Shown here one piece after another: positions 32,001 to 52,542 of a DNA stretch of 64,000 nucleotides. The DNA comes from Fidelibacterota bacterium (lineage in GTDB: Bacteria; Fidelibacterota; Marinisomatia; SCGC-AAA003-L08; JACNLC01). The position numbers were made by a program, and so were the translations under genes. A model generated the notes under the pieces. The model was not told where the DNA came from. It saw only the letters and a program-made list of their open reading frames with translations, and ran no database searches. The stretch's first letter is position 1; each line of letters starts with the position of its first letter. The DNA is taken from positions 2 through 64,001 of the forward strand of contig JACNLC010000061.1 of the NCBI GenBank assembly GCA_014381725.1, given 5' to 3'.

Positions 32001-32016
32001 TGGCAGGATATTTGCT
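32001..32016 (+). promoter_or_regulatory. Sigma-54 (-24/-12) promoter
   Basis: TGGCAG-GATAT-TTGCT matches TGGCAC-N5-TTGCW. It is 70 nt upstream of the porin ATG and divergent from an NtrC-type activator gene. Confidence 0.7.
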
Positions 32017-32085: not shown

Positions 32086-33441
32086 ATGATAAAGCGATTA
32101 ATAGTTATTGGAATATCAGCTTTGTTTATCAGTGGTGCTGTTGCCACAGATTTCAAAGTTGGTGGTGTTTACACAGCTTGGGCACAAAATCAAGTTGGTT
32201 TTACTTTTGACCAAGAAACTTACGATATGAATTATGTTGTTCAAATGCTAAGATTCAAAGTTCAAGGTATTGCAAACGAAAACTTGAAATTTGTAACTAG
32301 GTTTGATATGGCTCAAGGTTGGTGGGGCGTTGATAATATGCTCCGTGGCGTAGAGCGTTGGGAGAAAACAGGCGCAAGTAGTTTGTTTGACTTCAAAGAT
32401 ACAAACTATCTAATGCATATTGACCAAGCGTATGTTGATTTTAACTGGGATATTTACCACCCTTTAAATGTTAAAATTGGTCGTCAATGGTTTGGTTTGG
32501 GTAACAAACTAATGGTTGATAACAATTATGATGGTATTCAACTTAATGCTAAAGGTCTAACTCTCGGTTGGGCAAAGGTCTCCGAAGGAGCTGATAACAC
32601 AACGGATGTTGGTGCTCACAATGGTGATTCTGATTTATATTTAGGAAGTTATAAAAAGGCATTTGGTAATTTGGAATTGAATGCTTTTGGTTTTTATTAT
32701 AATGAAGCAATTACCCCTGACGATACAACAGCATATATTTTGGACGATTTGCAATTCTTCCGCAATAAGGATGCGGCTACTGTTACGCAACTGATGGCTG
32801 GTGGACTTGCTGGAAATTACAAAAAAGGTGCATTGACTGCTGATTTTGAATTTGATTATTTGATGGGCACAGACGGCATCAATGATTTGGATTTGACGGG
32901 TTTCAATTTGTACACTAAGGTAGGATATGCTGTAAGTGACAAACTAAAATTCGGTAGTATTTTTGGAATGGGTTCTGGCGATGATGCAAGTTCAGATGGC
33001 TTCACCAATGTGAATAAACTCCGAACCTCGGGTTTCTTCTATATGACAGAAATTTGGGAAGATTCCATTATGCCTGACGAAGAAGGAATTACACCACAAG
33101 GTCTGGGTGCGCCGAAAGTAAAAGCATATCGTGAACTTGAAAATACAACTATTTTTCAAGGAAATGTGGACTACAAAATCAGTGGTAACACATCATTATT
33201 TTTGAGCGGTAGTTACATTCAAGCAACAAGTGAAATCAAATCTGATACTGGTGAAGGTTCTCAAGATCTTGGAATGGAAGTGGACTTCCGCTTGAAACAT
33301 AACATCCAAAAGAATTTGTTTTTGATGCTTCGCGGTGGATATTTTATTCCGGGTGATGCAGCAGCCTATCTAGTGAATGGTCATAATGATTCATTAGATC
33401 CTGCTTATGAACTTAAAGGTATGGTTGTTTATAAATTCTAA
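32086..33441 (+). CDS. Outer-membrane beta-barrel porin-like protein
   Basis: Signal peptide (LIVIGISALFISGAVA), alternating beta-strand pattern, and a C-terminal aromatic residue (..GMVVYKF). Confidence 0.7.
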   Translation: MIKRLIVIGISALFISGAVATDFKVGGVYTAWAQNQVGFTFDQETYDMNYVVQMLRFKVQGIANENLKFVTRFDMAQGWWGVDNMLRGVERWEKTGASSLFDFKDTNYLMHIDQAYVDFNWDIYHPLNVKIGRQWFGLGNKLMVDNNYDGIQLNAKGLTLGWAKVSEGADNTTDVGAHNGDSDLYLGSYKKAFGNLELNAFGFYYNEAITPDDTTAYILDDLQFFRNKDAATVTQLMAGGLAGNYKKGALTADFEFDYLMGTDGINDLDLTGFNLYTKVGYAVSDKLKFGSIFGMGSGDDASSDGFTNVNKLRTSGFFYMTEIWEDSIMPDEEGITPQGLGAPKVKAYRELENTTIFQGNVDYKISGNTSLFLSGSYIQATSEIKSDTGEGSQDLGMEVDFRLKHNIQKNLFLMLRGGYFIPGDAAAYLVNGHNDSLDPAYELKGMVVYKF

Positions 33442-33453
33442 TTAGTTAATCGG

Positions 33454-33475
33454 TGGGGTGGCGTTCGTCACCCCA
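33454..33475 (+). other. Intercistronic hairpin between the porin and cytochrome genes (possible attenuator or mRNA stabiliser)
   Basis: TGGGGTG-N8-CACCCCA followed by TCATTTATT. Confidence 0.3.
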
Positions 33476-33497
33476 TCATTTATTAGAGGAACTTACA

Positions 33498-33881
33498 ATG
33501 AAATATTTTAAAAGTGGTTTAATCGGTAGTGTTTTAGCGTTGAGTTTAGTAGTATTTCTTATTTCTTGTGTTCAAACAGAATCACCCTCACTAGATTTAT
33601 CAAACAGAACTATACACCAAGAAGTTGATTTCGATATCAGCTGTATGGAATGCCACGAAGAAGTTACACCAGAAATCGTTGAGAATTGGGTAGAAAGTGG
33701 TCACGGAATATTGAATTATGGTTGTTATATTTGCCACGGAGATGGTTCAGTTGAATTTAATGTATTACCAAAAACAGATAATTGTATAGCATGCCATTCA
33801 TCAAGTGAAGGACATTTAATGCGAATGGAATATGAGGGCTGTTTTGATTGCCACGATGGACACACGCTAAGTGCACATTAA
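33498..33881 (+). CDS. Small tetrahaem c-type cytochrome lipoprotein (NapM-like by context)
   Basis: Four CxxCH motifs (CMECH, CYICH, CIACH, CFDCH) in about 100 aa, with a signal peptide and lipobox (FLISC). The ATG at 33498 is preceded by AGAGGA. Confidence 0.8.
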   Translation: MKYFKSGLIGSVLALSLVVFLISCVQTESPSLDLSNRTIHQEVDFDISCMECHEEVTPEIVENWVESGHGILNYGCYICHGDGSVEFNVLPKTDNCIACHSSSEGHLMRMEYEGCFDCHDGHTLSAH

Positions 33882-33912
33882 AAAATAATCAGTTTATAAA
33901 GAGGAGACAAAA

Positions 33913-36198
33913 ATGAAGAAAATATCAAGAAAAGAATTTATTAAAACATCAGCTGCAGTTTCTGCAGCCGCAGGTATAGGTGTTTCTCTATTTCCAGGAA
34001 TGACCTATGCAAAAAATTCCAGTAGTATGAATTGGCATAAATCAGTTTGTCGTTATTGTGGTGTAGGTTGTGGTGTAATGGTTGGTGAAAAAGATGGTAA
34101 AGTTGTAGCTGTGAAAGGTGATGAGTTGAACCCAATTAACAAAGGTCATCTTTGCGTGAAGTCACTTTATCTACCAAAAGCGATTAATTCCAAAACTCGT
34201 TTAGCTCATCCAATGATTCGCAAAAATGGTAAATTGGAGAAAGCATCTTGGGAAGAAGCATTGGATTTAGTTGCAAAGAAATTCAATCAAATACGTAAAG
34301 CTCACGGAGGAAATGCGTTAGCATTTTATGGTTCTGGTCAGGCAGAAACTGAAGAAACCTATATGGCTAACAAACTTTTCAAAGGTTGTATTGGTACCAA
34401 TAATGTAGAAGGAAATCCACGACTTTGCATGGCAAGTGCTGTAGGTGGTTATCTCACAAGTTTGGGTGCTGATGAGCCAGCGGGTCTTTACGAAGATATA
34501 GAAAAATCGGAAATGTTTTTACTTGTCGGTTCGAATACTGCTGAAGCACATCCGATTGTTTTTGAACGAATTATGCGTCATAAAAACAAAAATCCCAATG
34601 TGAAAATCGTAGTGATTGATCCAAGAAAAACTCCGACAGACCAAGTTGGAGATTTACATCTATTTCCGAATCCTGGTTTTGATCTAGCAATTTTCAATGC
34701 AATGGCTTTTGTTTTAATTAATGAGGGTTACGCAGATAAATCATTTGTTGAGAAACACACATTTATCAAGGATAATAAAAAGAACATTCACACATTTGAG
34801 GATTATAAAAAATTCCTCGAAGATTTTACTCCTGAAAAAGCGGAGAAAATTAGTGGAGTTCCTGCACAACAAATCATCAAAGCTGCAAGAATGTTTGGAA
34901 AAGCCAAGACTTCTATGTCGCTTTGGACAATGGGTTTGAATCAACGAATTGGTGGAGTTTGGGCAAATAATCTAATCCATAACTTACATTTGTTAACCGG
35001 CAAGATTGGTGTACCGGGCAGTGATTCCTTTTCATTAACTGGTCAGCCCAATGCCTGCGGAGGTGTTCGTGAAGGTGGTGGATTATGTCATCTATTACCG
35101 GGGCATCATTTAGTTGTTAAAGAAGCTCATCGTAAAAAGGTTGCAAAAGTTTGGGGAGTACCAGCGAGCAACATTCAACCGAAACCTGGTAAACATACTA
35201 TTGCGATGTTTTCTGCACTAAATGCGGGTGAAATCAAAGGTATCTACATTATGTGTACAAATCCTGCACATTCATTACCTAATTCCCGTAAATATTGGAA
35301 AGGTTTGAAAGAACAGTTTGTAGTTGTTGCAGAATCATTTTTCCCAACAATGACAACTGAATATGCCGATGTTGTGCTTCCAGCCGCATTTTGGACGGAA
35401 AAAGAAGGTGTTTACGGGTGTACAGAACGACGCTCTCAGTATATGCCTAAAGTGGTTGAACCACAAGGTGAAGCTATTTGGGATGCCTTTATACTTCGTG
35501 ATTTAGCAAAGAAAATGGGGTTTGATAAAGAATTTGCTAAATACGAAACTGCTGAAATTATGTGGGACGAATACCGAGGACTTACTGCAGGTAAAGATAT
35601 GAACTTAATGGGTGCACCATACAGTCGTTTGAAGAAAGTTCGTGGATTAACTTGGCCTGTGCCAACGGAAGACCATCCAGGAACTTACAAACGATTTACT
35701 GATGGTGACCCGATTTATGATTCTAAATGGTCAAGTAAAGCGAAGAGTGATGGACGAAGAATGTGGTTTTACGGTCCTAAAGCGAAAGATGGAAAAGCGA
35801 CTATCTGGATGAGACCACATAAAGACCCTGCTGAAGTACCAAGCAAGGAATATCCTTATGCTTTGACCACAGGTCGTGTATTGGAACATTGGCATACATT
35901 AACGATGACAGGAACTTCTCCACAACTAAATCGTGCAGTGCCAAAAGCGTATGTGGAAATTCATCCAAGCGATGCCAAAAAAGAAGGCATCAAAAATAAA
36001 GAAATGGTTTTGGTTGAATCTCCACGAGGTAAACTTGAAATTGAAGCTAGAGTCATTGACAGACCAATTCCAGGAACGATATTTGTACCTTGGCATTGGC
36101 CAGAATCTCCGATTAATGTGCTTTGTAATGATGCGTTTGATCCTGGTTCAAAAGAACCTGAATACAAAGTTGCAGCTGCGAAGATAACCAAAGCTTAA
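33913..36198 (+). CDS. napA: Periplasmic nitrate reductase catalytic subunit, monomeric type (molybdopterin oxidoreductase)
   Basis: Tat-like signal (SRKEFIKTSAAVSAAAGIG..TYA), [4Fe-4S] motif CRYCGVGCGV...C, Mo-ligand region NPRLCMASAVGGY, GSNTAEAHPI, and a C-terminal DPGSKEPEYKVAAAKI. A NapD gene is adjacent. Confidence 0.85.
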   Translation: MKKISRKEFIKTSAAVSAAAGIGVSLFPGMTYAKNSSSMNWHKSVCRYCGVGCGVMVGEKDGKVVAVKGDELNPINKGHLCVKSLYLPKAINSKTRLAHPMIRKNGKLEKASWEEALDLVAKKFNQIRKAHGGNALAFYGSGQAETEETYMANKLFKGCIGTNNVEGNPRLCMASAVGGYLTSLGADEPAGLYEDIEKSEMFLLVGSNTAEAHPIVFERIMRHKNKNPNVKIVVIDPRKTPTDQVGDLHLFPNPGFDLAIFNAMAFVLINEGYADKSFVEKHTFIKDNKKNIHTFEDYKKFLEDFTPEKAEKISGVPAQQIIKAARMFGKAKTSMSLWTMGLNQRIGGVWANNLIHNLHLLTGKIGVPGSDSFSLTGQPNACGGVREGGGLCHLLPGHHLVVKEAHRKKVAKVWGVPASNIQPKPGKHTIAMFSALNAGEIKGIYIMCTNPAHSLPNSRKYWKGLKEQFVVVAESFFPTMTTEYADVVLPAAFWTEKEGVYGCTERRSQYMPKVVEPQGEAIWDAFILRDLAKKMGFDKEFAKYETAEIMWDEYRGLTAGKDMNLMGAPYSRLKKVRGLTWPVPTEDHPGTYKRFTDGDPIYDSKWSSKAKSDGRRMWFYGPKAKDGKATIWMRPHKDPAEVPSKEYPYALTTGRVLEHWHTLTMTGTSPQLNRAVPKAYVEIHPSDAKKEGIKNKEMVLVESPRGKLEIEARVIDRPIPGTIFVPWHWPESPINVLCNDAFDPGSKEPEYKVAAAKITKA

Positions 36199-36218
36199 TA
36201 TTATTTGTGTGATAATTG

Positions 36219-36258
36219 CGGGGTGTTTGTTTTTTCCTATTGTTTGTCAAACACCCTG
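36219..36258 (+). other. Stem-loop after napA
   Basis: GGGTGTTTG (36221-36229) pairs with CAAACACCC (36248-36256) around an 18-nt loop. There is no clear U-tract. Confidence 0.3.
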
Positions 36259-36287
36259 TAATTTTAATAATTAACCAAAGTTATTTT

Positions 36288-36857
36288 ATGGATAAAAAAA
36301 CTCACACTGCTCTTTCGCGTAAATCATTTTTTAAGGAATTTGTTCAACATTTTTCTGAAGAAATGAAATTAGATACAAGTCAATACAACGAGATGTTTCA
36401 ATCGGTTACATTACCTCCAGGAGCAAAATCTGTCGAAGATTATATCGAAAAGTGTAACAAATGTTACGATTGTGTCTCGGTTTGTCCACATTCATCAATA
36501 AGAGTAAGACACGATGAAAATGAAAAATTATCAGGATTTCCAATTATTGAACCTAGATTGGAAACTTGTCAATTTTGCGATGATAGATTATGTGTTGAAT
36601 CTTGTAAAACTGATGCGTTATCAAGTAGCTTTCAAGATAATATTGTTTCGGAATTGAATATTGATAAAGAAATTTGTCATTCTTTCAATGAGCGACTTTG
36701 TTATACTTGTGTTACAAACTGTCCAAAAACCGGAGAAGCAATCGCAATGAATAAAAAAGGAAATCCTGAAATCAATAATGAGCTTTGTAATGGATGTGGA
36801 ATATGTATTCAAGTATGTCCAGCAGAAGAATCTGCAATCAAAATTAAATCATATTAG
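36288..36857 (+). CDS. napF: NapF-like cytoplasmic 4x[4Fe-4S] ferredoxin
   Basis: Vestigial Tat-like motif SRKSFFKEF with no hydrophobic region, an LPPGA motif, and four Cys clusters (CNKCYDCVSVCP, CQFCDDRLCVESC, C..CYTCVTNCP, CNGCGICIQVCP). The ATG at 36288 is preferred over 36216. Confidence 0.65.
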   Translation: MDKKTHTALSRKSFFKEFVQHFSEEMKLDTSQYNEMFQSVTLPPGAKSVEDYIEKCNKCYDCVSVCPHSSIRVRHDENEKLSGFPIIEPRLETCQFCDDRLCVESCKTDALSSSFQDNIVSELNIDKEICHSFNERLCYTCVTNCPKTGEAIAMNKKGNPEINNELCNGCGICIQVCPAEESAIKIKSY

Positions 36858-36868
36858 GAGAAAGAATT

Positions 36869-37114
36869 ATGGCAATCACAGGAGTAGTGATATTAGTAGA
36901 ACCAAACAAGGCAGAAGAGATTTTATACGAAGTGAGTCATTTAGATGATGTAACAACTTATGGATTACATAAAGAAAATAATATTGTAGCAGTTATTGAA
37001 GGTGAAAATTCCAAAAACCTAGAAAATAAAATTAACCAAATAAAAGATAAAATAGATGGAATTCTAGGAATATTTCCTGCTTATGCAAATTATGAAGAAG
37101 AGATAGACGAGTAA
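36869..37114 (+). CDS. napD: NapD-like Tat proofreading chaperone
   Basis: 81 aa, with ITGVVILVEPNKAEEI...NIVAVIEGEN matching the NapD ferredoxin-like fold pattern. It sits within the nap cluster. Confidence 0.75.
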   Translation: MAITGVVILVEPNKAEEILYEVSHLDDVTTYGLHKENNIVAVIEGENSKNLENKINQIKDKIDGILGIFPAYANYEEEIDE

Positions 37115-37119
37115 ACTAA

Positions 37120-37635
37120 ATGCTTTTTGAATGGATAAATAGAATTTCAAAACTTCATAATCCACTTCGCCCGCCCGGCGCAGTAAAGGAACATGAATTT
37201 GTTGATACCTGTATTCGCTGTAGAAAATGTGAAGAAGTTTGTCCATATCAATCCATAAAAATGTTAAATGGAGTACACGGAACTAAGATGGGAACTCCGG
37301 TAATTATATCGAGAGAAACACCTTGCTATCTATGTGAAGATTTCCCTTGTGTTGATGTTTGTCCGAGTGACGCTCTTAGACAAGTAAAAACAAATAAAGA
37401 TGTGAAAATGGGAATCGCTAAAATCGATAAAGATACCTGTTTTGCTTTTAACGGAATTTTGTGCAGAGCTTGTTTTGAACGATGTCCCATTTATCGAGAA
37501 GGTATTGTTATGGAAAATCAACTCTATCCTAAAGTTCAAGAAGAATATTGTGTTGGTTGTGGAATTTGTGAAAATGTTTGTCCTACTGAAAATGGTTCAA
37601 TCTTTGTGGAAAGCAGACATCCGATAGTTGTATGA
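37120..37635 (+). CDS. napG: NapG/MauM-like 4x[4Fe-4S] ferredoxin lacking an N-terminal Tat signal
   Basis: LRPPGAVKEHEFVDTCIRCRKCEEVCP, then CYLCEDFPCVDVCP, C..CRACFERCP and CVGCGICENVCP. An in-frame stop 3 nt upstream of the ATG excludes a longer N-terminus. Confidence 0.7.
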   Translation: MLFEWINRISKLHNPLRPPGAVKEHEFVDTCIRCRKCEEVCPYQSIKMLNGVHGTKMGTPVIISRETPCYLCEDFPCVDVCPSDALRQVKTNKDVKMGIAKIDKDTCFAFNGILCRACFERCPIYREGIVMENQLYPKVQEEYCVGCGICENVCPTENGSIFVESRHPIVV

Positions 37636-38501
37636 TGAATAATTTCACTTCCAATATACACTATTTTAGACGGATATCTCAAGTCCTCGCAATTGGATTA
37701 ATAATCATTATTCCGTTTTCTAATTTACTTGGTATCCATTGGGTTTCTGGTACTTTATACAGTATGAGTTTTGGCTCGCTCGATTTCTCTGACCCAAGTT
37801 TGATTTTGCAAACATTGGTTTTAGTTAAAAAGATTTCACTACCATTTTTTATATCGGGGATTATTCCATTATTGTTGGCAATGTTCTTAGGGAAAGTGTT
37901 TTGCAGTTGGATATGTCCATTTCATTTACTCTCTGAATGGGCTTACAAGTTAATTAAAAAAATCAAAAAGATATCTTCAACGGCTAACAAAAATCCAAAA
38001 CGAAATTTTAATTTAGTAATATTTTTTGGATTGTTATTATTCATATTTCTATCTGAAGTTCCAATATTCTCTTTGGTTTCTCTTCCTGGAATAATATCTT
38101 CTCAAGTTGCTGATTTAGTTATTATTAGAACATTAGGAATAGAGATATTTATTATAATTTTAGTTCTACTTTTGGAGATGTTTTCATTATCTCGTTTTTG
38201 GTGTAAATATGCTTGTCCCGTTGGTTTAAGTCTTGGATTAACTAAATTCAAAAATTCACTGAGTATTGTTTGTGACTCATCAAAATGTGGTAAATGCCCA
38301 CAGAGGAAGCAAAATCCCTGCAAAACAGCTTGTTCGTTCAATCTAAATCCAAAAGAATTAGGAATTTATCCAGTTTGCAACAATTGTATTGAATGCGTAT
38401 CAGTATGTAATGAAAATAATGGTGCTTTACAATTGACATTCAATTTAGTAAAAAAAACTAATATTAGAAATAAAAACAACAACCATAATAAAGGAGAATA
38501 A
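37632..38501 (+). CDS. napH: NapH-like membrane-bound iron-sulfur protein
   Basis: Four TM helices with two CxxxCP motifs (CSWICPF, CKYACPV) and a C-terminal Cys-rich Fe-S region (CGKCP..C, CNNCIECVSVC). There is a 4-nt overlap with the napG-like gene. Confidence 0.8.
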   Translation: MMNNFTSNIHYFRRISQVLAIGLIIIIPFSNLLGIHWVSGTLYSMSFGSLDFSDPSLILQTLVLVKKISLPFFISGIIPLLLAMFLGKVFCSWICPFHLLSEWAYKLIKKIKKISSTANKNPKRNFNLVIFFGLLLFIFLSEVPIFSLVSLPGIISSQVADLVIIRTLGIEIFIIILVLLLEMFSLSRFWCKYACPVGLSLGLTKFKNSLSIVCDSSKCGKCPQRKQNPCKTACSFNLNPKELGIYPVCNNCIECVSVCNENNGALQLTFNLVKKTNIRNKNNNHNKGE

Positions 38502-38504
38502 TCA

Positions 38505-38972
38505 ATGAAGAAAGGAGAAGGACAGAAGCAAAATCGAAAAGAATTCTTGAAGAAATTCGGGATATTTGGTGTTTTGATTTTGGCTGTCGGAAGTTTTGTC
38601 AAGAATCTGATTGTGTTCGTCTCTCCGGAAAGTAAAACTAAAAGTACACATCGATATTTAGTTGGTAAAAAAAGTGAGATATCGGTAGGAAAATCTAAGG
38701 AAATTTCAATTCAGGGTAAACCTGCTTTTGTGGTTCGATTAGATGAAGGTTTTAAAGTATTTTCCGGAGTATGTACTCATTTAGGATGTATTATCAAATG
38801 GGAAGAAAACAATAACAGATTCTTTTGCCCTTGCCATAATGGAGTTTTTGATAAAACAGGGAAAGTTGTTTCCGGACCACCACCTGAACCACTTAAAGAA
38901 TTTGAGGTAGAAGAAGACGGGAATTTGGTGTTTATTCAAGTTGAGGATAAACGGAAAGGACCTTGGGTATGA
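38505..38972 (+). CDS. Rieske [2Fe-2S] protein of a cytochrome bc-type complex
   Basis: Rieske boxes CTHLGC and CPCHNG. N-terminal RKEFLKK is followed by a TM helix (Tat-type anchor). Confidence 0.9.
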   Translation: MKKGEGQKQNRKEFLKKFGIFGVLILAVGSFVKNLIVFVSPESKTKSTHRYLVGKKSEISVGKSKEISIQGKPAFVVRLDEGFKVFSGVCTHLGCIIKWEENNNRFFCPCHNGVFDKTGKVVSGPPPEPLKEFEVEEDGNLVFIQVEDKRKGPWV

Positions 38973-40006
38973 GTGCAAAAGAATGGATAAACGAACGATT
39001 TCCAATTAAAGGGAAATCTTTGACAGAGACACTTTTAAAGGAAGAAATTCCTATACATATGAAAAAGTGGTTATTTGCAATGGGAACAACGCCATTTATA
39101 TTGTTTCCTCTTCAGATAATTACAGGTATGTTACTTGCTTTCTATTTCATTCCGTCGACGGAAATGGCATTCGAAAGTGTTCGATATATTACTGAAGAAG
39201 TAAGAATGGGATTTTGGATAAGAGGAATTCATCATTGGGGAGCGAATTTAATGGTGATTTCAATATTCCTGCATATGATGAGAGTATTCTTTACACATTC
39301 CTATAGAAAACCTCGTGAATTGAATTGGGTAGTTGGGTTTGTACTATTATTTTTAACCTTAACCATTTCATTTACAGGTTATTCTCTGACTTACAATCAA
39401 GTATCATTTTGGGCTGCAACGGTAGGAACTAATTTAGTAAAGGAAGTTCCATTTATTGGTACAGCTCTTTTAGAAATGATGCGAGGTGGTGGGGATGTAA
39501 CAATAAATACTCTAACTCGGTTTTACACACTTCATGTGTGGTTACTTCCGATAATTATAACTTTGATAGTTGTATTCCACATTGTGATGATAAGGTTGCA
39601 CGGTATTTCTGAACCAAAGGAATTTGAAAAAGGACATTACGAATTTTATCCGAATCATTTGTATAAAATTATTATCGTAACTCTTTTTCTAATTTCATTT
39701 TTGAGTCTGATGGCAGTCTTGTTACCTCCTGGGTTAGGGGAGCCTGCAGACCCGGCGAATACTCCGTTGCATATCAAACCCGAATGGTACTTTTTCCCAG
39801 TATTCTTATTTTTAAGATTAGTACCGTTAAGTGTGGGGTTATCGTTAACAGGTTTAGCGGTTTTACTAATGACATTCTGGCCATTTTTTGAAACATTGTT
39901 TTCTAAAAATGAGAAAACGAGAAATGTAATTAGCAGAATAGTTGGAAGTATAGCAATCATAATTTTGATTGTATTTACAATTATCGAATCATTTTCACTC
40001 ATTTAA
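38969..40006 (+). CDS. Cytochrome b (fused b6-like N-terminal domain plus subunit IV-like C-terminal domain)
   Basis: Haem-ligand helices (GIHHWGANLMV..FLHMMRVF; YTLHVWLLP..FHIVMIRLHG) and Qo-site PEWYFFP. The ATG at 38969 overlaps the Rieske stop (ATGA). Confidence 0.9.
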   Translation: MSAKEWINERFPIKGKSLTETLLKEEIPIHMKKWLFAMGTTPFILFPLQIITGMLLAFYFIPSTEMAFESVRYITEEVRMGFWIRGIHHWGANLMVISIFLHMMRVFFTHSYRKPRELNWVVGFVLLFLTLTISFTGYSLTYNQVSFWAATVGTNLVKEVPFIGTALLEMMRGGGDVTINTLTRFYTLHVWLLPIIITLIVVFHIVMIRLHGISEPKEFEKGHYEFYPNHLYKIIIVTLFLISFLSLMAVLLPPGLGEPADPANTPLHIKPEWYFFPVFLFLRLVPLSVGLSLTGLAVLLMTFWPFFETLFSKNEKTRNVISRIVGSIAIIILIVFTIIESFSLI

Positions 40007-40030
40007 AAATTAAAAAGGAAAGGAAATTCT

Positions 40031-41647
40031 ATGAAAAATGTGAAAATACAACAATGGTTAATAGGCATATTTAGCGTATTGCTTATAGGAAGTCTAATGA
40101 TAGTCGCAAGTGTAGAAATTAAAAGAACATCAGGTGATTCTCACGAAATTGATGTTGATGAAATTTCAGCAAGATGTATAAAGTGCCACGAAAAAGAAAA
40201 CATAGCTGTTAAACAAGTACATGCTTGGGAAGAAAGTATGCACGCTTTAAAAGGCATTGGATGTTATGAATGTCACGAAGCTCAAAAAGATGACTTTGAT
40301 GCATTCTATTGCGAAAGTAGTGACTTATTGGTTGCACGACATCCCACACCGAAAGATTGTTCGGAATGCCACGAAAAAGAAGTCGCTGAGTTTGCTAATA
40401 GCAAACACGCACATCAATTTTGGTTATTTGCAAATGCAGACAGAGCAACATTTGAAATGCCGATTGCAACTCGACACGGATGCGAAGAATGCCACCAAAT
40501 CGGTAATCTTTGGCCTGATGGTAGTGTTGGGGAATGCGATGCTTGTCACAGTAAACACTCATTCAGTATGGAAGTTGCAAGACAACCGGAAACTTGTGGT
40601 GAATGTCATATTGGTCCGGACCATCCGCATATTGAGATTTATAATGAATCCAAACACGGAAACATTTTCAAGGCGAGAGGTAAACATTGGGATATGAATT
40701 ACAACACTACTAACAATGAAGAAATACCTTTTGAAGCACCAGTTTGTGTTACTTGCCATATGGACGGAAATGAAACTCAACCTATGACGCACGATGTTAG
40801 TGCTCGTTTGGCATGGGAATCGCAAGCACCGTGGAGTTATCGCACGGTTTGGGATGAAGAAAATTTGGGTAGTTGGGATGTAAAACGCGGTAGAATGGAA
40901 GCTATTTGCAATTCTTGTCACGCGCCAGATTTTGTGGATGTATATTTTCTAACGGCTGACTTGGTGAATTTGCAATACAATGAAATCCGTCGAGAGTTTG
41001 TCTATTGGACGCAAAAACTGACAGCAGACGGCACAATTGACCGTCTTGAAAAAGATGGAAAATTCTATTCCAATCCAGTTATCAGTGGTTGGGATGAAAA
41101 ACCAGAGGAATTGATGTATTATGCGTGGCATCACGAAGGTCGTCGTTTCCGTCATGGTGCACTTATGATGGGAGCAGACTTTACTCAGTGGCATGGAATT
41201 TGGGAAATCCAAGAAGATATGGTTGAACTAATTACTTGGGCAGCAGAACACGGCGATCACGAGGCTGAAAAATGGGTTAATTCAAATGATCCTGCAAAAT
41301 TTCGCCCCTATGCATTGTATGATATTCCGGGAAATGAATGGGGTATAAATGCAAAAGCAAATACAACACCATTTGTTTATAACAATCATCCAGATTATTG
41401 GGAGCGTGTGTATAAAAATGTAAAAAAAGCATACGACGAAGGTTTGCTCACAAGAGACCAATGGAATTTGTGGTTAAATCGTTACGAAAACAAAGACCAT
41501 TTTCTTGGATTAAAGTATACAAACGATGCTAAAGTTGATTCAACTTGGAACTTTTATAAAGATAGAAATGCTATTGATAAAGAAGCATTCATCAAGCAAG
41601 CTGTTAAATTAGATTTACCGGGGAAATCATTCTACGATGATAAGTAG
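40031..41647 (+). CDS. Octahaem c-type cytochrome of the hydroxylamine oxidoreductase (HAO) family
   Basis: Eight CxxCH motifs. Blocks are collinear with HAO: CEECH..CDACHSKHSFSMEVARQPETCGECHIGPDHPHIEIYNESKHG, APVCVTCHMDG, ICNSCHAPDF. An N-terminal hydrophobic anchor or signal is present. Confidence 0.85.
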   Translation: MKNVKIQQWLIGIFSVLLIGSLMIVASVEIKRTSGDSHEIDVDEISARCIKCHEKENIAVKQVHAWEESMHALKGIGCYECHEAQKDDFDAFYCESSDLLVARHPTPKDCSECHEKEVAEFANSKHAHQFWLFANADRATFEMPIATRHGCEECHQIGNLWPDGSVGECDACHSKHSFSMEVARQPETCGECHIGPDHPHIEIYNESKHGNIFKARGKHWDMNYNTTNNEEIPFEAPVCVTCHMDGNETQPMTHDVSARLAWESQAPWSYRTVWDEENLGSWDVKRGRMEAICNSCHAPDFVDVYFLTADLVNLQYNEIRREFVYWTQKLTADGTIDRLEKDGKFYSNPVISGWDEKPEELMYYAWHHEGRRFRHGALMMGADFTQWHGIWEIQEDMVELITWAAEHGDHEAEKWVNSNDPAKFRPYALYDIPGNEWGINAKANTTPFVYNNHPDYWERVYKNVKKAYDEGLLTRDQWNLWLNRYENKDHFLGLKYTNDAKVDSTWNFYKDRNAIDKEAFIKQAVKLDLPGKSFYDDK

Positions 41648-41698
41648 ATTTTGCTTCGTTCAATTATTTGGACAGCAGTAAATTACATAAGTAAAAAT

Positions 41699-41724
41699 GC
41701 GGAGGTTGTTGATGCAACCTCCGC
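41699..41724 (+). terminator. Perfect 10-bp stem-loop at the end of the respiratory operon (terminator or processing site, no clear U-tract)
   Basis: GCGGAGGTTG-TTGATG-CAACCTCCGC, followed by AAAACTCC. Confidence 0.35.
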
Positions 41725-41810
41725 AAAACTCCGAGTTATTTTTCCTACTTTCAATGAATATGGAAAAGTAACCGATAGGGTGAAATGGGAAACGATTTTA
41801 CCTCCCGAAC
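41725..41810 (+). promoter_or_regulatory. Candidate molybdenum cofactor (Moco) riboswitch
   Basis: CTCCGAG ... GGAAAAG ... CCGATAGGGTGAAATGGGAAAC ... CCTCCC lies directly 5' of moaA. This resembles, from memory, the conserved blocks of the Moco RNA motif. Confidence 0.5.
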
Positions 41811-42851
41811 TTGGAAAGGAGATTTGAAATAATTTTACAAACAAAAAATAATTCCTATAATGGAATTTCTAAACAACTCAGCGATAACTTCGGAAGGAAG
41901 ATTACATATCTGCGTGTAGCAATTACAGACCGTTGTAACTTGCGATGCAAATATTGTATGCCCGAAAATGGTATCCAATCAATCCCACACGAAAATGTTT
42001 TAACTTTTGAAGAACATCTAAGAATAATCCGATTGTCTTCAAAATTTGGTGTTAACAAAATAAGAGTTACTGGAGGAGAACCATTTGTTAGAAAAGGTAT
42101 AATCAAGTTCTTGCGAGATGTTAAACAAATTTCTGGAATTGAGAACATACACATAACAACTAATGGAATTAGCACATCTAAGTTTGCAGATGTGTTAAAT
42201 GAAATCGGAATTTCCGGAATTAATTTAAGCCTCGATACTTTGGATGAACAGAGATTCCATAAAATTACACGCCGAGATTTATTCGCAAATGTATGGAAAT
42301 CAATACAAAAAATAATTGAGTTAGAAATTCCGTTAAAAATCAATGCTGTTATTCAAAATGATTTCAACACCGATGAAATCATACCATTAGCAAATTTAGC
42401 TAAAGAATATCCGATTGATGTCCGATTTATTGAAGAAATGCCTTTTAATGGGACTGGAAAATTTACTTCAAAACCGTTCACAGGGAAACAGATTTATCAA
42501 ACTTTAGAGGAAGAATATCCAGACATAGAGCAAATTCTGAATAATGGTTCTACAGCTAAAATGTATAAAATTCCTGAGTTTACTGGAAAAGTTGGAATTA
42601 TAGGAGCATACTCGCGAACCTTTTGCTCCGCTTGTAATCGAATTCGATTAACATCAACTGGAATGCTAAAAACCTGTTTATACGATGATGGAATACTAAA
42701 CTTGAAAGATTTGTTGAGAAGTAATGCATCGGATAGTGATATTATAAGAGAAATCCAAAATAGTATTGGAAACCGAAATAAAGATGGATTTGTGTCTGAA
42801 TCTTTGAAAAAAACGAAAAACTATAATGCAATGGTGAACATTGGGGGATAA
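41811..42851 (+). CDS. moaA: GTP 3',8-cyclase (radical SAM, Moco biosynthesis)
   Basis: YLRVAITDRCNLRCKYCMP, RVTGGEP, and a C-terminal CSACNRIRLTSTGMLKTCL. The start is uncertain (TTG 41811, or ATA 41829 located 7 nt after AGGAG). Confidence 0.9.
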   Translation: MERRFEIILQTKNNSYNGISKQLSDNFGRKITYLRVAITDRCNLRCKYCMPENGIQSIPHENVLTFEEHLRIIRLSSKFGVNKIRVTGGEPFVRKGIIKFLRDVKQISGIENIHITTNGISTSKFADVLNEIGISGINLSLDTLDEQRFHKITRRDLFANVWKSIQKIIELEIPLKINAVIQNDFNTDEIIPLANLAKEYPIDVRFIEEMPFNGTGKFTSKPFTGKQIYQTLEEEYPDIEQILNNGSTAKMYKIPEFTGKVGIIGAYSRTFCSACNRIRLTSTGMLKTCLYDDGILNLKDLLRSNASDSDIIREIQNSIGNRNKDGFVSESLKKTKNYNAMVNIGG

Positions 42852-44000
42852 ATGAGCAAATTGAAAAACAAATTTGCGTTTTCAGAAATTACCGGTGCAT
42901 TAGGAGACCTTGGAACAACTCTACCAATTGCGTTTGCGTTGATAGTGATAAATGGATTTCCACCTGAAAGAATTTTCTTTTTGTGGGGAATAGTATATAT
43001 TCTTTCGGGTTGGTTTTACAAAGTGCCTATATCGGTTCAGCCATTGAAAGCGATGGCAGTTATTGCTATTGCCAACGAATATTCTGCGGATATGTTATCT
43101 TCTACAGCTTTCTTTTATGGAATTTTACTAATCATACTATCTTCTACAGGTGCTATTAAGTGGCTACAAAAGTGGTTTTCCGATGCGTTGGTGAAAGGTA
43201 TTCAAATGGGTATCGGACTTATCCTTGCGAAGAAAGCAGTAGTTTTAGTTTGGGAAAAAGGTCTTATATTGAATTTATCCGAATCGTCTTTATTGCTGAA
43301 TTTCACTATTTTTGTTACAGTGATATTAGCAATATGGGTTTTGCAGTTCAAACGAAAAATTCAGATAATTCTACCACTATGCGTTATTGGGATTATTGTA
43401 GTCCTGTATTTTGGAGTTAATCAGGATTTCAGTCAGTATTTAGGTAGAGTTGTTTTGTTCACTAAACCGAATGTTTCGTTGCTACTCAATAGTTTTGTTT
43501 TGCTGATGCTTCCACAATTACCATTGACATTGGGAAATGCAGTTTATGCAGCATCGGATAGTTGCCACATTTTGTGGAAGGAGCAATCGGAACGAGTGAA
43601 TCCAACTCGACTTGGAACTTCTATTGGATTGAGTAATGTTGCTATCGGATTAATGGGAGGATTTCCAATTTGTCACGGAGCTGGGGGAATTGGTGCTCAC
43701 GCTCAGTTTGGTGGTAAAACTGGGGGAACTACGATTATCATAGGCTCAATTTTAGTGATTATCGCAATAATACCGTCGGCATCCATATTTTTATTTTTAA
43801 TTCCTGTACCGATTTTGGCTGCGTTGTTACTTTTCGATAGTTTGCGAATGGTCAGCTTTGTGAAAAACTTACTTCAGACAACTGAAATGATAGTTGCTGT
43901 TACAGTTGGAATTATAGCATTTGCTACAAGAAATTTATTTATTGCATTGGTTATAGGATTTATTTTGGAATGGATAATTAAGCGAAAATCCGATAGCTAA
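42852..44000 (+). CDS. MOT1-family (SulP-related) putative molybdate transporter
   Basis: Long collinear similarity to plant MOT1 as I recall it: GALGDLGTTLPIAFAL, VPISVQPLKAMAVIAI, VKGIQMGIGL, PQLPLTLGNAV, PICHGAGGIGAHAQFGGKTGG. Confidence 0.75.
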   Translation: MSKLKNKFAFSEITGALGDLGTTLPIAFALIVINGFPPERIFFLWGIVYILSGWFYKVPISVQPLKAMAVIAIANEYSADMLSSTAFFYGILLIILSSTGAIKWLQKWFSDALVKGIQMGIGLILAKKAVVLVWEKGLILNLSESSLLLNFTIFVTVILAIWVLQFKRKIQIILPLCVIGIIVVLYFGVNQDFSQYLGRVVLFTKPNVSLLLNSFVLLMLPQLPLTLGNAVYAASDSCHILWKEQSERVNPTRLGTSIGLSNVAIGLMGGFPICHGAGGIGAHAQFGGKTGGTTIIIGSILVIIAIIPSASIFLFLIPVPILAALLLFDSLRMVSFVKNLLQTTEMIVAVTVGIIAFATRNLFIALVIGFILEWIIKRKSDS

Positions 44001-44036
44001 TAGAGAAGGGTTAACATTAAATAAGGAGAAAACAAT

Positions 44037-44945
44037 ATGATAGATGTAAGTCCAAAATTTAATACATTGAGATGGGCAACAGCTGAAGGTGTTTTAACGG
44101 CATCTGCTGAAGTGATACAAAGAGTAAAAGAGAATACCGTTCCGAAAGGAGATGTTCTTCAAGTAGCAAGGGCTGCGGGAATTCAAGCGGCAAAACGAAC
44201 AGCAGACTGGATTGTATTCTGCCATCCATTACCACTCGATTGGGTCGGGATAAAATTTGAAGTGGAAGAAACTCAGATTCGAGTAATTTCCGAGGTGAAA
44301 GCTGTTTGGAAAACCGGTGTGGAAATGGAAGCGATGTCAGCTGTGATGGGTGCAATGTTAAATATTTACGATATGCTCAAACCTTTGGATGATGAAATAA
44401 TTTTTAATGAAATTAAACTAATCAAAAAGAAAGGTGGGAAAAGTCAATTTACAGATTCATTTGAACCGGCCATTACATCAGCAGTCTTAGTTATTTCGGA
44501 CTCAACTTACAAAGGTGATAGAAAAGATAAGTCTGGAGTGATTATTAAGGAATTTTTAGAAAAACAACCTGTGGATGTTAAATTCTACGAAATTCTACCT
44601 GATAAACCTGAAATGATTACCGAAAGATTAACTCAACTTGCGGATGATGAGAAAATTCAGTTAATAATTACAACAGGGGGAACTGGCTTTGGTCCGAAAG
44701 ATTTTACTCCTGAATCTACCAAACCGATACTGGATAAGGAAGCTCCAGGAATTACAGAAACTATAAGAAAGCACGGAAAAGAACGCACTCCTTATGCAAT
44801 GTTGTCAAGGGAAATTGCAGGTATTCGTGGTGATTCGTTAATCATCACATTACCGGGAAGCTCAAAGGGTGCGAAAGAAAGTCTGGAAGCATTATTCCCG
44901 GGCTTATTGCACATTTTCCCTATGATGTGGGGCGGTGGACATTAA
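44037..44945 (+). CDS. moaC: Fusion protein: cyclic pyranopterin monophosphate synthase MoaC (N-terminal) plus MogA/MoaB-type domain (C-terminal)
   Basis: MoaC block (KGDVLQVARAAGIQAAKRTADWIVFCHPL, TGVEMEAMSAV..IYDM), then a MoaB/Mog block (VLVISDS, IITTGGTGFGPKDFTPE). Confidence 0.88.
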   Translation: MIDVSPKFNTLRWATAEGVLTASAEVIQRVKENTVPKGDVLQVARAAGIQAAKRTADWIVFCHPLPLDWVGIKFEVEETQIRVISEVKAVWKTGVEMEAMSAVMGAMLNIYDMLKPLDDEIIFNEIKLIKKKGGKSQFTDSFEPAITSAVLVISDSTYKGDRKDKSGVIIKEFLEKQPVDVKFYEILPDKPEMITERLTQLADDEKIQLIITTGGTGFGPKDFTPESTKPILDKEAPGITETIRKHGKERTPYAMLSREIAGIRGDSLIITLPGSSKGAKESLEALFPGLLHIFPMMWGGGH

Positions 44946-44992
44946 GAATTTAAGATTGAAAATTCTATGCTAAAAGCTAAATAGGAAAAAAA

Positions 44993-46195
44993 ATGATTAC
45001 AGATAAAGAAGCAACTCGACTAATAAATGCAAATTTACCGACGATTAATATCGAGGTTGTTGCCTTGATGGATTCTTTGGGTAAAGTATTGGCTGAAGAT
45101 GTAATATCTCCGGTATCATCTCCGCCATACACGAACAGTGCGATGGATGGATTTGCAGTAAAATGGGATAATATTTTTGATAACATTGATTGCAAACTCG
45201 AAATCATCGGAGAAAGTCAAGCAGGAATTCCTTACAAAGGAAATGTAAATACGGGTCAAGCGATAAGGATTAACACAGGAGCTATTGTCCCTGAAGAAGT
45301 TGACACAGTAGTTCCAATTGAGGATTGTTCTTCCGATGATAAATTCGTTGTAATTCACTCTGCGAAAAAACTTGGACAGCATGTTCGTTATACCGGAGAG
45401 GAGTTCAAAAAAAGAGATGTATTACTCGAAAAAAATACAATAATTGAACCTGCTCAAATCGGACTTTTGTCATCAGTTGGGGTAAAGGACATTTCAGTTT
45501 ATCAAAGTCCAACTGTAGCCGTTGTTGTTACCGGCACGGAATTAGTTGAATTTGATACATCTGCAGAAGCATATCAATTACGGGATTCTAATACTCCGAT
45601 GCTGAAAGCAGCTCTGAGATACACCGGAGTTGAAAATATATCCTCATATCGTGTGGGTGACAGTCTTGAAAATACAATTGATGTTTTAGACGAAGCTCAG
45701 AAATCTAACCAAATTATAATTGTTACCGGTGGAGTTTCGGTTGGGTTACACGATTATGTAAAAGAAGCATCTAAAGCACTTGGATTTACCGAAATATTTT
45801 GGAAAGTTCGCCAAAAACCCGGTAAACCATTTTATTTTGCAACAAATGGAAACAAGTTGTTGTTTGGACTTCCCGGGAATCCTGTTTCAGCATATATGGG
45901 ATTTATACATTATATAGACCCGATTATACGAAAACTTCAAAAATTACCTGAGCAACCTCACATATTGGAAGGTCGTTTGGTTGATGGATTCCAAAATAAA
46001 AAAGACAGAACGCAATTCGTTCGTGTTAAAATTGAATTTGATGGAGAAACCCAGAATGTAATTGTTTCAAAAAAACAAGGATCGCATATGTTGACATCAA
46101 TTGCAGAGACTGACGGGTATATCCGTGTTGATGGAAAATCGAAACTTGATGCGAATAAGTTGGTTAATGTGATTTTATTTCCAGGTAGAGTATAA
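44993..46195 (+). CDS. moeA: Molybdopterin molybdenumtransferase
   Basis: NSAMDGFAV, IIVTGGVSVG, FWKVRQKPGKP and GLPGNPVSA. Confidence 0.9.
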   Translation: MITDKEATRLINANLPTINIEVVALMDSLGKVLAEDVISPVSSPPYTNSAMDGFAVKWDNIFDNIDCKLEIIGESQAGIPYKGNVNTGQAIRINTGAIVPEEVDTVVPIEDCSSDDKFVVIHSAKKLGQHVRYTGEEFKKRDVLLEKNTIIEPAQIGLLSSVGVKDISVYQSPTVAVVVTGTELVEFDTSAEAYQLRDSNTPMLKAALRYTGVENISSYRVGDSLENTIDVLDEAQKSNQIIIVTGGVSVGLHDYVKEASKALGFTEIFWKVRQKPGKPFYFATNGNKLLFGLPGNPVSAYMGFIHYIDPIIRKLQKLPEQPHILEGRLVDGFQNKKDRTQFVRVKIEFDGETQNVIVSKKQGSHMLTSIAETDGYIRVDGKSKLDANKLVNVILFPGRV

Positions 46196-46626
46196 TGGGA
46201 ACAATTGAAGCAATTTGTATCAGTAAAAAAAAGGGAATAGTTAAGAAGGAAATTCCTAGTGCTACATTAGTAAAAGATAGTGGGATTGAAGGAGATGCTC
46301 ACGCTGGAGATTGGCATCGTCAGGTTTCGTTACTTGCAGGCGAGAGTATTGATGTTGCAAAGGAAAAACTTCCCACACTTGCCAGGGGGGCATTTGCAGA
46401 GAATATCATCACGCGGGATATCGAACTACGCGAACTAAAAATAGGTGACCAACTAAAATTGGGAGATTCGGCCATTTTGGAGATTACTCAAATTGGAAAA
46501 GAATGCCATACGGCTTGTGCTATCAAGAACATTATAGGCGATTGCATAATGCCGAAAGAGGGTATTTTTGCAAAAGTGATTGACGGTGGAGAAATAAAAG
46601 CTGGTTCGCAAGTGGAGAAAATTTGA
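46195..46626 (+). CDS. MOSC domain-containing protein
   Basis: About 140 aa with ITRDIELRELKIGDQLKLGDSAILEITQIGKECH, which is typical of small MOSC proteins. It sits within the Moco cluster. Confidence 0.7.
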   Translation: MGTIEAICISKKKGIVKKEIPSATLVKDSGIEGDAHAGDWHRQVSLLAGESIDVAKEKLPTLARGAFAENIITRDIELRELKIGDQLKLGDSAILEITQIGKECHTACAIKNIIGDCIMPKEGIFAKVIDGGEIKAGSQVEKI

Positions 46627-47175
46627 TTAATAGTTATTCAACTTCTCAAAATCTTCAGGTGAATTTACATTTAAAAATTGTGATGATAATGCATCTGCAT
46701 TGACTGTTCTAGAAGGATGATTACTGATAAAATCCATCAACTTGTAATTTCCATTTTGTAAATTCTTTTCCAAATCTTCGGTGAGTGATTTATGATACAA
46801 TGCACACATTGGTTGAAGTCTATCCTTTACGGTTGGAATTATTATTTTTACCTTGTCAGAAATAGTCTGAGTTAACAAATTTACTGTTTCTTTTCCGACC
46901 ATAGGCATATCAACTGCTACGAATAAATTCCAATCTGATTTAGTTGAAGATAATCCTGTATAAATGCCTGTCATCGGACATTGAGTTTCTATTTTGTCAG
47001 GTAAGAATGGCAGTTTTGAGTGAGTTCGTATTTTCCCGATAATTGTTACATTATCAAACAAAGTTTCTAAGCGATTATATAGTATTTTGGTGAAAGTTAA
47101 ATCCTCAATTGTTGCAATTGATTTGTCAGAGCCGAATCGTCGGCTTTGTCCACCGGTAAGAATATATGCGTTCAT
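46627..47175 (-). CDS. mobA: Molybdenum cofactor guanylyltransferase
   Basis: N-terminal YILTGGQSRRFGSDK, followed by VAVDMP. Confidence 0.85.
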   Translation of the reverse strand: MNAYILTGGQSRRFGSDKSIATIEDLTFTKILYNRLETLFDNVTIIGKIRTHSKLPFLPDKIETQCPMTGIYTGLSSTKSDWNLFVAVDMPMVGKETVNLLTQTISDKVKIIIPTVKDRLQPMCALYHKSLTEDLEKNLQNGNYKLMDFISNHPSRTVNADALSSQFLNVNSPEDFEKLNNY

Positions 47176-52534: not shown

Positions 52535-52542
52535 TATATTAA

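Follow-up and report, generated by a model that had tools for sequence, protein, structure and literature searches.

Periplasmic reduction of nitrate and nitrite through NapC, NapGH or NrfH is generally held to be non-electrogenic, and a Rieske/cytochrome b pair that had the nitrite-reducing enzyme itself as electron acceptor would conserve extra energy per electron. The closest described system is the cluster Cabys_2564-2556 of Caldithrix abyssi, for which Kublanov et al. (2017) reported that a canonical bc1 complex is missing and that no monohaem cytochrome c lies in the vicinity. They proposed that its Rieske/cytochrome b proteins pass electrons to NapM and/or directly to the octahaem cytochrome εHao, with a proton-motive force as a possible result, and that NapGH is an alternative donor to NapA in this organism (PMC5317091). 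For Campylobacter jejuni it has been shown genetically that Nap respiration depends on the Rieske/cytochrome bc complex QcrABC (PMC6195509). In the anammox complex R/b-3, the octahaem protein Kuste4574 has been proposed as a nitrite reducer, and all subunits were reported to co-migrate (PMC12954380). Here we analyse a 64,000-nucleotide stretch (the window; contig JACNLC010000061.1 of assembly GCA_014381725.1) from a Fidelibacterota bacterium, that is, from Candidatus Marinimicrobia, a phylum different from that of C. abyssi. A Rieske protein, a cytochrome b and an octahaem cytochrome c of the hydroxylamine oxidoreductase (HAO) family are encoded there behind a periplasmic nitrate reductase (nap) module. 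The cluster is the Marinimicrobia orthologue of the C. abyssi nap-Rieske/cytochrome b-εHao cluster, and its last three genes (the trio) most likely encode, as far as sequence and gene context indicate, a module that acts as a menaquinol:nitrite reductase and in which the octahaem stands in the position of cytochrome c1.

On the plus strand, positions 32086-41647 hold ten tightly packed genes, the first porin-like and the last encoding the octahaem, which were assigned gene by gene with Pfam and NCBIfam:

32086-33441, plus strand: outer-membrane porin-like protein (Pfam Alginate_exp; NCBIfam DESULF_POR1 below its cut-off)
33498-33881, plus strand: NapM-like tetrahaem cytochrome c (four CXXCH motifs, weak Pfam c3/c7 matches; lipobox LISC)
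33913-36198, plus strand: NapA, catalytic subunit of periplasmic nitrate reductase (NCBIfam NapA, E = 1.9e-201; Pfam Molybdop_Fe4S4, Molybdopterin, Molydop_binding)
36288-36857, plus strand: NapG-like poly-ferredoxin (NCBIfam NapG, E = 4.5e-25; several Pfam Fer4 families)
36869-37114, plus strand: NapD chaperone (Pfam NapD, E = 2.2e-11)
37120-37635, plus strand: NapF/NapG-like cytoplasmic ferredoxin without signal peptide (NCBIfam NapG, E = 5.1e-46; NapF, E = 6.3e-14)
37632-38501, plus strand: NapH, membrane quinol-dehydrogenase subunit (Pfam Fer4_5; NCBIfam NapH/MauN, E = 5.8e-29; hydrophobic segments read from the sequence)
38505-38972, plus strand: Rieske 2Fe-2S subunit (Pfam and NCBIfam; N-terminal anchor helix)
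38969-40006, plus strand: cytochrome b of 345 residues with fused b6-like and subunit-IV-like halves (Pfam and NCBIfam)
40031-41647, plus strand: octahaem cytochrome c of the HAO family (eight CXXCH motifs; sequence and fold matches in the structure database)

The C. abyssi locus (L089) matches all ten genes of the cluster, and their order, at 34-74% identity (NapA 74%, octahaem 70%, cytochrome b 62%, Rieske 52%, NapM region 48%), together with the same divergent kinase and sigma-54 regulator and the same leading porin gene. The closest named relatives are Calditrichia, among them C. abyssi with about 60% for cytochrome b. The gene order recurs on two metagenome contigs (L081 and L082) and in a further Calditrichia locus (L083), while a KSB1 locus (L084) has the same genes with napD before napG; the porin gene leads in L081, L083, L084, L089 and an Ignavibacteriae locus (L085) alike. 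Two differences from C. abyssi concern the signal of NapG, reported there as twin-arginine and reading RK in the window, and the region downstream of the octahaem gene, which holds a molybdenum cofactor (Moco) riboswitch and a Moco operon in the window and other genes in C. abyssi. A preliminary description of this DNA had suggested that the NapM-like protein and/or the octahaem take the role of c1 and so make quinol oxidation electrogenic. This is essentially a published hypothesis, since the same proposal had been made for the orthologous cluster (PMC5317091). The observation behind that description is real and its outline reading correct; published work had anticipated most of it, and on NapM and NapGH it is in part mistaken.

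From napG to the octahaem gene the intergenic gaps range from -4 to +24 nt, and no terminator-like site was found on the plus strand between 33477 and the octahaem stop codon at 41647. The small gaps and the lack of an internal terminator-like site argue for co-transcription. We infer that the NapM-like protein starts at Met16 of its listed open reading frame (ORF), whose longer GTG start is overlapped by a hairpin (33452-33477), and the NapG-like protein at Met25. The Rieske stop codon (TGA, 38970-38972) and the cytochrome b start codon (ATG, 38969-38971) share the ATGA at 38969-38972, and the ORF ends bear out what the preliminary description had said of this overlap. The start at ATG 38969, and not at TTG 38963, follows from the 100% identity of the cytochrome b over 345 residues to a protein (P0001) of a Candidatus Marinimicrobia metagenome-assembled genome (MAG); the octahaem is likewise identical to a Candidatus Marinimicrobia MAG protein. 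A four-nucleotide ATGA overlap is a common feature of operons and unremarkable alone. The junction is conserved among orthologous loci, which have either ATGA (L081, L083 and L089) or TAATG (L084 and L085).

The Rieske protein matches Pfam PF00355 (E = 1.6e-16) and the NCBIfam models for bc1 and b6f Rieske proteins (E = 1e-18 to 1e-19). It begins with a hydrophobic helix (residues 14-32), and both CxHxGC...CxCH boxes of the cluster are present (CTHLGC, residue 90; CPCH, residue 108). In ubiquinol-type Rieske centres, a Ser and a Tyr raise the potential. Box II of the window protein, CPCHNGVF, has neither, which points to a low-potential centre of the menaquinol type.

The cytochrome b unites b6-like and subunit-IV-like halves in a single ORF, as the preliminary description had also recognised: Pfam places Cytochrome_B at residues 29-210 and Cytochrom_B_C at 259-339, and NCBIfam places cytochrome b6 at 5-216 and b6f subunit IV at 227-336. 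The haem ligands His88/His102 and His189/His204 and the PEWY motif at residue 271 are invariant in our alignment (A1). Between the His pairs lie 14 residues in helix D, which is the b6 spacing, and 13 in helix B. There are seven hydrophobic helices, six from the scan and helix B from its His pair. The cysteine for haem ci, which in b6 sequences lies near the N-terminus (YC.GG), is absent: the window protein reads LFAMGT with Ala at that column, and C. abyssi has Val. Other Marinimicrobia cytochromes b, like that of the window, have Ala or Val there, and three Calditrichia proteins (P0017, P0026 and P0029) have Cys in a YC.GA context (YCSGA/YCAGA; alignment columns 40-46, residues ~36-40). It may be that only some members of the clade carry the extra haem.

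Which cytochrome, then, would take electrons from the Rieske cluster? CXXCH motifs occur in three stop-to-stop frames of the whole 64 kb, those of the sensor kinase (one), NapM (four) and the octahaem (eight). There is thus no c1/f-like monohaem gene anywhere in the window, which extends to 64 kb the earlier statement that none adjoins the pair, and the same scan found no NapC/NirT-type protein. A second bc complex or an alternative complex III is not encoded within the window either. The preliminary description had the pair flanked by a tetrahaem and an octahaem cytochrome. This holds for the octahaem gene, which starts 24 nt downstream of cytochrome b, but not for the tetrahaem gene, which is found where the operon begins, 4.6 kb upstream.

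We compared 88 further related loci, 86 of which carry cytochrome b, using the window proteins as BLAST queries against all their ORFs. Eighty of these loci came from a cytochrome b profile scan of species-representative genomes and are a broad sample among the matches listed, which contained no Marinimicrobia or Calditrichia loci; the rest are exact-protein look-ups. In 51 of the 86 loci, from more than ten phyla, the gene directly after cytochrome b encodes an octahaem homologue with eight CXXCH motifs. Where the cytochrome b is at least 40% identical to that of the window, this is so in 47 of 59 loci. Among the other 12, six have no haem-protein ORF scored beside cytochrome b. Three of these (L020, L021 and L030) fall inside the octahaem-linked clade described below; the sequence ends just past cytochrome b in L020 and L030, and in L021 the octahaem ORF begins outside the search window. 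In the remaining six loci the downstream ORFs are of the mono-, nona- or dodecahaem kind, and the cytochromes b fall outside that clade.

Phylogenetic placement, a step that the preliminary description had suggested, puts the octahaem-linked cytochromes b in one clade of a neighbour-joining tree. Its members are Marinimicrobia-like contigs, Calditrichia, KSB1, Ignavibacteriae/Melioribacteraceae, Bacteroidales, Acidobacteriota, Planctomycetota, Gemmatimonadota, Nitrospinota, Binatia, Myxococcota, Spirochaetia and one Clostridiales MAG. Other clades are linked to a pentahaem protein (Geobacteraceae, Nitrospirota) or to a monohaem protein (Bacillota, Actinomycetota). Pairwise distances of cytochrome b correlate with those of the octahaem at r = 0.84, of the Rieske protein at 0.76 and of NapA at 0.61, shared species history contributing to all three values. 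Rieske protein, cytochrome b and octahaem are a co-inherited, conserved unit.

These results bear on the idea that the pair is a general complex III whose location is accidental and which supplies soluble carriers of other terminal reductases or oxidases. We regard it as very improbable. The lack of other Rieske/cytochrome b genes in C. abyssi would fit it, but that organism is also devoid of soluble monohaem cytochromes c and possesses an alternative complex III (PMC5317091), and the window encodes no monohaem cytochrome c. Moreover, the position of the pair directly upstream of the octahaem gene is conserved across phyla, with genes overlapping or abutting, and the cytochrome b clade is monophyletic and defined by its partner.

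The NapM-like protein was the other candidate for the c1 role. NapM-like genes occur in 7 of the 51 trio loci, and they follow nap operons. In L085 and in a Melioribacteraceae locus (L001) the trio is on its own, and several kb with a two-component system separate it from the nap operon (porin, NapM, NapA, NapD onward); in L033 trio and nap operon diverge from each other. It is thus the octahaem that is conserved as partner, and NapM as the c1 equivalent was rejected as the main reading.

A further point for the octahaem is its conserved N-terminal helix. The linked octahaems share an N-terminal layout of a short basic segment, an uncharged stretch of 18-23 residues, a Glu and a basic region. 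Leu22 and Glu29 are found in all 51, Val25 in 48 and Lys7 in 45 of them, in sequences that are ~30% identical overall; in the window protein the helix spans residues ~9-28. Homologues that do not adjoin Rieske/cytochrome b (P0233 and P0240; loci L087 and L088; 50-53% identity) have cleavable AxA-type signal peptides. Cytochromes c1 and f have membrane anchors that make specific contacts. Since invariant residues are not expected in a cleaved signal peptide, the N-terminal segment of the linked octahaems may well be a retained membrane helix making specific contacts in the same way. Its place downstream of cytochrome b, its single cytochrome b clade and this helix make the octahaem the strongest candidate for the part of c1/f, and it is on balance probable that the trio is a functional unit with the octahaem as Rieske acceptor.

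At the stand-alone octahaem loci L087 and L088, from Desulfuromonas and another MAG, an ORF of 172-174 residues without Pfam match follows the octahaem gene (8717-9241 in L087, 4427-4945 in L088). Its product may be an alternative membrane partner of the stand-alone octahaem.

The octahaem is a member of the HAO family. Its profile aligns through the haem motifs to 1fgj/4fas, 4n4j, 6h5l and 4qo5. Among the sequences of the Protein Data Bank the best match is Ignicoccus IhOCC (4qo5, E = 5.5e-41), followed by Kuenenia HAOr Kustc0458 (6h5l, 4e-26), Nitrosomonas HAO (1fgj/4fas, ~7e-26) and, at 2e-23 to 9e-20, Kuenenia HOX, a Brocadia HAO-like protein and hydrazine dehydrogenase. In sequence and profile searches of solved structures, only HAO-family proteins rose above noise. 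Foldseek was run with an AlphaFold2 model (pLDDT 70.7) that was used for fold-family assignment only, the haem-binding core being poorly modelled without haems. Its ten matches at E ≤0.001 are all HAO-family chains (TM ~0.45), and two reductive enzymes, IhOCC and Kustc0458, rank first.

HAO relatives without the Tyr-haem cross-link act as reductases and reduce nitrite; the substrates of εHao are nitrite and hydroxylamine, and HAOr converts nitrite to NO (PMC8042395). The cross-linking Tyr467 of Nitrosomonas europaea HAO sits in GGWTYTEGW. With IhOCC as a bridge, the matching stretch of the window protein is GADFTQWHGIW (381-391), which has no Tyr, a correspondence that is not significant by direct alignment; position 384 is Tyr in 43 of the 51 homologues. 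Alignments of the octahaem to N. europaea HAO by hidden Markov model stop before the C-terminal domain, and a search with its C-terminal 63 residues gave no match. The C. abyssi orthologue has no cross-linking Tyr according to Kublanov et al.; C. abyssi grows by reducing nitrate to ammonium without NrfA, and this orthologue is its only candidate nitrite reductase (PMC5317091). Because the two octahaems are 70% identical, the product from nitrite would most likely be ammonium in the window organism as well.

An octahaem that makes NO from nitrite, as anammox HAOr does, or removes hydroxylamine or NO, would leave the trio real without respiratory ammonification. Kustc0458 (6h5l), a nitrite-to-NO enzyme, is a top match by sequence and fold, and two neighbourhoods bear on the substrate: in L085 a NapH-like gene, nrfH and nrfA (5061-8284) directly precede the trio, and in L084 a cytochrome P460 gene (13003-13491) directly follows the octahaem gene. 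We nevertheless consider this reading unlikely, as the best sequence match is IhOCC and not Kustc0458, εHao enzymes reduce both nitrite and hydroxylamine (PMC8042395), C. abyssi makes ammonium from nitrate with no other nitrite reductase gene (PMC5317091), and no NO reductase or nosZ gene is found in the window.

How is NapA supplied with electrons? The NapA domains together with NapD identify a Nap system, for which NapGH is encoded as a quinol dehydrogenase; NapA itself scores 671 bits, below the NCBIfam equivalog cut-off of 904. NapGH is recognised as a quinol dehydrogenase independent of NapC. In the window, NapG has a signal of the twin-arginine translocation (Tat) type and NapH keeps two CX3CP motifs (CSWICP and CKYACP), so NapA can be supplied through NapGH, and nitrate reduction here does not require the Rieske/cytochrome b pair. 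The Tat-like motifs are all RK and not RR: SRKEFIK in NapA (33913-33960), SRKSFFKE in NapG (36288-36340) and NRKEFLKK in the Rieske protein (38505-38560). A tatC gene lies in the same window (62647-63393). The NapM-like protein is a probable lipoprotein, and NapGH and NapM probably serve NapA. The pair does lie inside a nap operon, as the preliminary description had said, and follows napMAGDFH there; to that description it must be added that the operon also has intact napG and napH. To set the pair apart from NapC or NapGH routes was accordingly an overstatement.

In the fuller form of the reading given in the preliminary description, the pair would be the quinol oxidase for both steps, with electrons passing via NapM and/or the haems of the octahaem to NapA as well as to the active site of the octahaem, and nitrate reduction also being electrogenic. 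Kublanov et al. list this route as an option (PMC5317091), Nap activity in C. jejuni needs QcrABC (PMC6195509), and a NapA-like gene lies within 10 kb of the trio in 31 of the 51 trio loci. At L007, L009, L023 and L037 (~12.7-15.7 kb) and L033 (14.9-18.7 kb) a NapA-like gene (41-45% identity) comes after the trio, and after it a gene for a tetrahaem lipoprotein of 180-210 residues whose N-terminal half matches Pfam NapB. Many loci of this kind, from Acidobacteriota, Planctomycetota, Gemmatimonadota and Myxococcota, have no NapC or NapGH nearby; the pair is then the only quinol dehydrogenase in the cluster and may feed nitrate reduction there. For the window we hold this reading to be rather unlikely because NapGH is present, with a Tat-type signal on NapG and an intact NapH, and NapM sits in nap operons separate from the trio in L085, L001 and L033 and accompanies few trios elsewhere.

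We therefore return to the trio as a menaquinol:nitrite reductase and propose that one transcription unit encodes two respiratory modules. In the first (NapM, NapA, NapG, NapD, NapF and NapH), nitrate would be reduced to nitrite in the periplasm, with NapGH as the quinol dehydrogenase and NapM as a lipoprotein haem relay. In the second, the trio, menaquinol would be oxidised at the Qo site (PEWY) of the b6-type cytochrome b, and the low-potential Rieske cluster would pass one electron to the haem chain of the octahaem. Held at the membrane by its own N-terminal helix, the octahaem would thereby take the place of cytochrome c1/f, and its five-coordinate catalytic haem would reduce nitrite, most probably to ammonium. 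Should the second electron go back via haems bL and bH to a Qi site, the nitrite step would be electrogenic. From textbook potentials, the span from menaquinol to nitrite/ammonium is ~0.4 V, which is ample for a Q-cycle; we consider a Q-cycle, and with it electrogenicity, plausible. Physical association, direction of electron flow, reaction product and Q-cycle are thus all predicted features of the trio.

Several points weigh against this proposal. The case for a complex is drawn from genes and sequences. Rieske/cytochrome b complexes are dimers. The characterised HAO-family enzymes are trimers (PMC8042395), and the resulting mismatch of symmetry speaks against a complex of fixed stoichiometry. 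In the anammox case, AlphaFold3 could not dock the HAO-like Kuste4574 onto the complex (PMC12954380). The haem-ci cysteine is absent from the cytochrome b, and local alignment of the octahaem with the Tyr467 peptide scored below shuffled controls. That octahaem homologues at 50-53% identity exist without Rieske/cytochrome b indicates that the enzyme can work with other donors, and the nrfHA genes beside the trio in L085 suggest that nitrite ammonification may not be the only or main job of the module. Finally, as the trio-NapA-NapB-like loci suggest, the module may feed nitrate reductase elsewhere, and possibly here too.

The surroundings of the cluster contain the following regulatory features:

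28485-29861, minus strand: sigma-54-dependent response regulator, divergent from the operon (Pfam Response_reg, Sigma54_activat, HTH_8)
29858-31759, minus strand: sensor histidine kinase with a Tll0287-like periplasmic domain and one CXXCH motif, SCLSCH (Pfam Tll0287-like, HAMP, PAS_9, HisKA, HATPase_c)
32001-32016, plus strand: sigma-54-type -24/-12 promoter-like element TGGCAGGATATTTGCT (pattern match; putative function)
41698-41725, no strand assigned: G+C-rich hairpin 50 nt past the octahaem stop codon, with a T-run on the minus-strand side
41717-41837, plus strand: Moco riboswitch directly after the octahaem gene (Rfam RF01055, 78 bits)

The element TGGCAGGATATTTGCT lies ~70 nt upstream of the porin gene and is the only match in the window (34% G+C), where 0.26 would be expected by chance. 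L081 has a similar element upstream of its porin gene and L085 one ahead of its nap operon, and none was found upstream of the stand-alone trio in L085, L001 and L086. The element would fit control by the neighbouring sigma-54 regulator. The pair of kinase and sigma-54 regulator is kept beside the cluster in C. abyssi and in L081 and L083. A Tll0287-like kinase is also encoded near the trio of the Clostridiales MAG (L086), there with OmpR-type (Trans_reg_C) regulators. These findings suggest a haem-based sensor of redox state or nitrogen oxides.

The hairpin at 41698-41725 is probably the end of the transcription unit, and the riboswitch at 41717 marks the start of the next. The Moco operon (41811-46626) comprises moaA, a gene for a MOT1-type molybdate transporter, a moaC-mog fusion, moeA and a MOSC protein gene, with mobA at 46627-47175 on the minus strand. 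The cofactor supply of NapA is thus encoded adjacently, in a unit with its own regulation. For moaA, the true start probably lies further downstream than the listed TTG (41811), which overlaps the riboswitch.

Elsewhere in the window, a cobalamin riboswitch (RF00174, 49.8 bits; 26240-26370, minus strand) lies upstream of a TonB-dependent receptor gene (24142-26220, minus strand), the two being probably a B12 uptake system. A short plus-strand ORF (53097-53270) in a 1.6-kb stretch without long ORFs (52534-54110) has a C-terminus that resembles the catalytic region of tyrosine recombinases and is likely an integrase remnant. Three plus-strand ORFs of 448, 373 and 517 residues (6463-7809, 48717-49838 and 59789-61342) have no Pfam match at E ≤1e-5; the 373-residue ORF sits between a LolA-like gene and an MMPL-family transporter gene.

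Could the trio represent a class of its own? We advance tentatively, as a possibility, that it forms a separate and ancient class, still without a name, of quinol:nitrite (or NOx) reductases that conserve energy and in which a membrane-anchored HAO-family enzyme is itself the c1-equivalent. If so, the class would span more than ten bacterial phyla, including Marinimicrobia, Calditrichota, Ignavibacteriota, KSB1, Acidobacteriota, Planctomycetota, Gemmatimonadota, Nitrospinota, Myxococcota and Bacillota, and would often be wired to NapA-NapB with no other quinol dehydrogenase nearby. HAO-dependent ammonification of nitrate and nitrite would then be proton-motive, unlike the NrfH- and NapC-dependent routes, and a widespread route for the dissimilatory reduction of nitrate to ammonium would have been missed by nrfA-based surveys. 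Oxygen-deficient seawater is rich in Marinimicrobia, and a hidden route there that conserved energy while turning nitrite into ammonium or NO would bear on the retention versus loss of marine nitrogen, and on gene surveys that count only nrfA, nirS and nirK. The conservation of the trio and the invariant anchor helix provide concrete, testable targets in cultured C. abyssi. In a literature search that left subscription journals mostly uncovered, the nearest statements to a multi-phylum trio came from the C. abyssi paper, a Nitrospina genome note describing an octahaem beside a bc-like operon, and the anammox work. Within that incomplete literature, the breadth and monophyly of the trio and the invariant anchor helix of the octahaem may be new.

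How does the cluster compare with characterised systems? It shares NapM, NapA, NapD, NapG and NapH, as well as the lack of NapB, with the Desulfovibrio desulfuricans-type Nap system (napCMADGH), and differs from it in having no NapC, in a NapF-like gene and in the appended Rieske, cytochrome b and octahaem genes. The octahaem resembles εHao, IhOCC and HAOr in its eight CXXCH motifs, its sequence and its fold, and its predicted activity follows from this family; unlike them, it is encoded directly after Rieske/cytochrome b and keeps an N-terminal membrane helix. C. jejuni Qcr is likewise a menaquinol-oxidising Rieske/cytochrome b complex that drives periplasmic reduction of nitrogen oxides electrogenically, but it is a general menaquinol:cytochrome c reductase that serves oxygen respiration too and is not described within a nap cluster (PMC6195509); its partner is not of the HAO family, whereas the candidate partner in the window is. 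With a fused cytochrome b, no haem-ci cysteine and no cytochrome f, the complex is not a b6f complex.

The anammox complex R/b-3 (Kuenenia stuttgartiensis kuste4569-4574) is likewise of the Rieske/b6 type, without cytochrome f and with an HAO-like octahaem, Kuste4574. It alone has b6 and subunit IV as split proteins, an extra hexa-/octahaem subunit and an NAD(P) oxidoreductase subunit (PMC12954380). Genes for an NAD(P) oxidoreductase or an additional multihaem subunit were not found in or beside the window cluster, and for these reasons the trio is not of the R/b-3 type. It may instead be the non-anammox counterpart of R/b-3 and, with its fused cytochrome b and the octahaem as sole c-type partner, a simpler model for that poorly understood complex.

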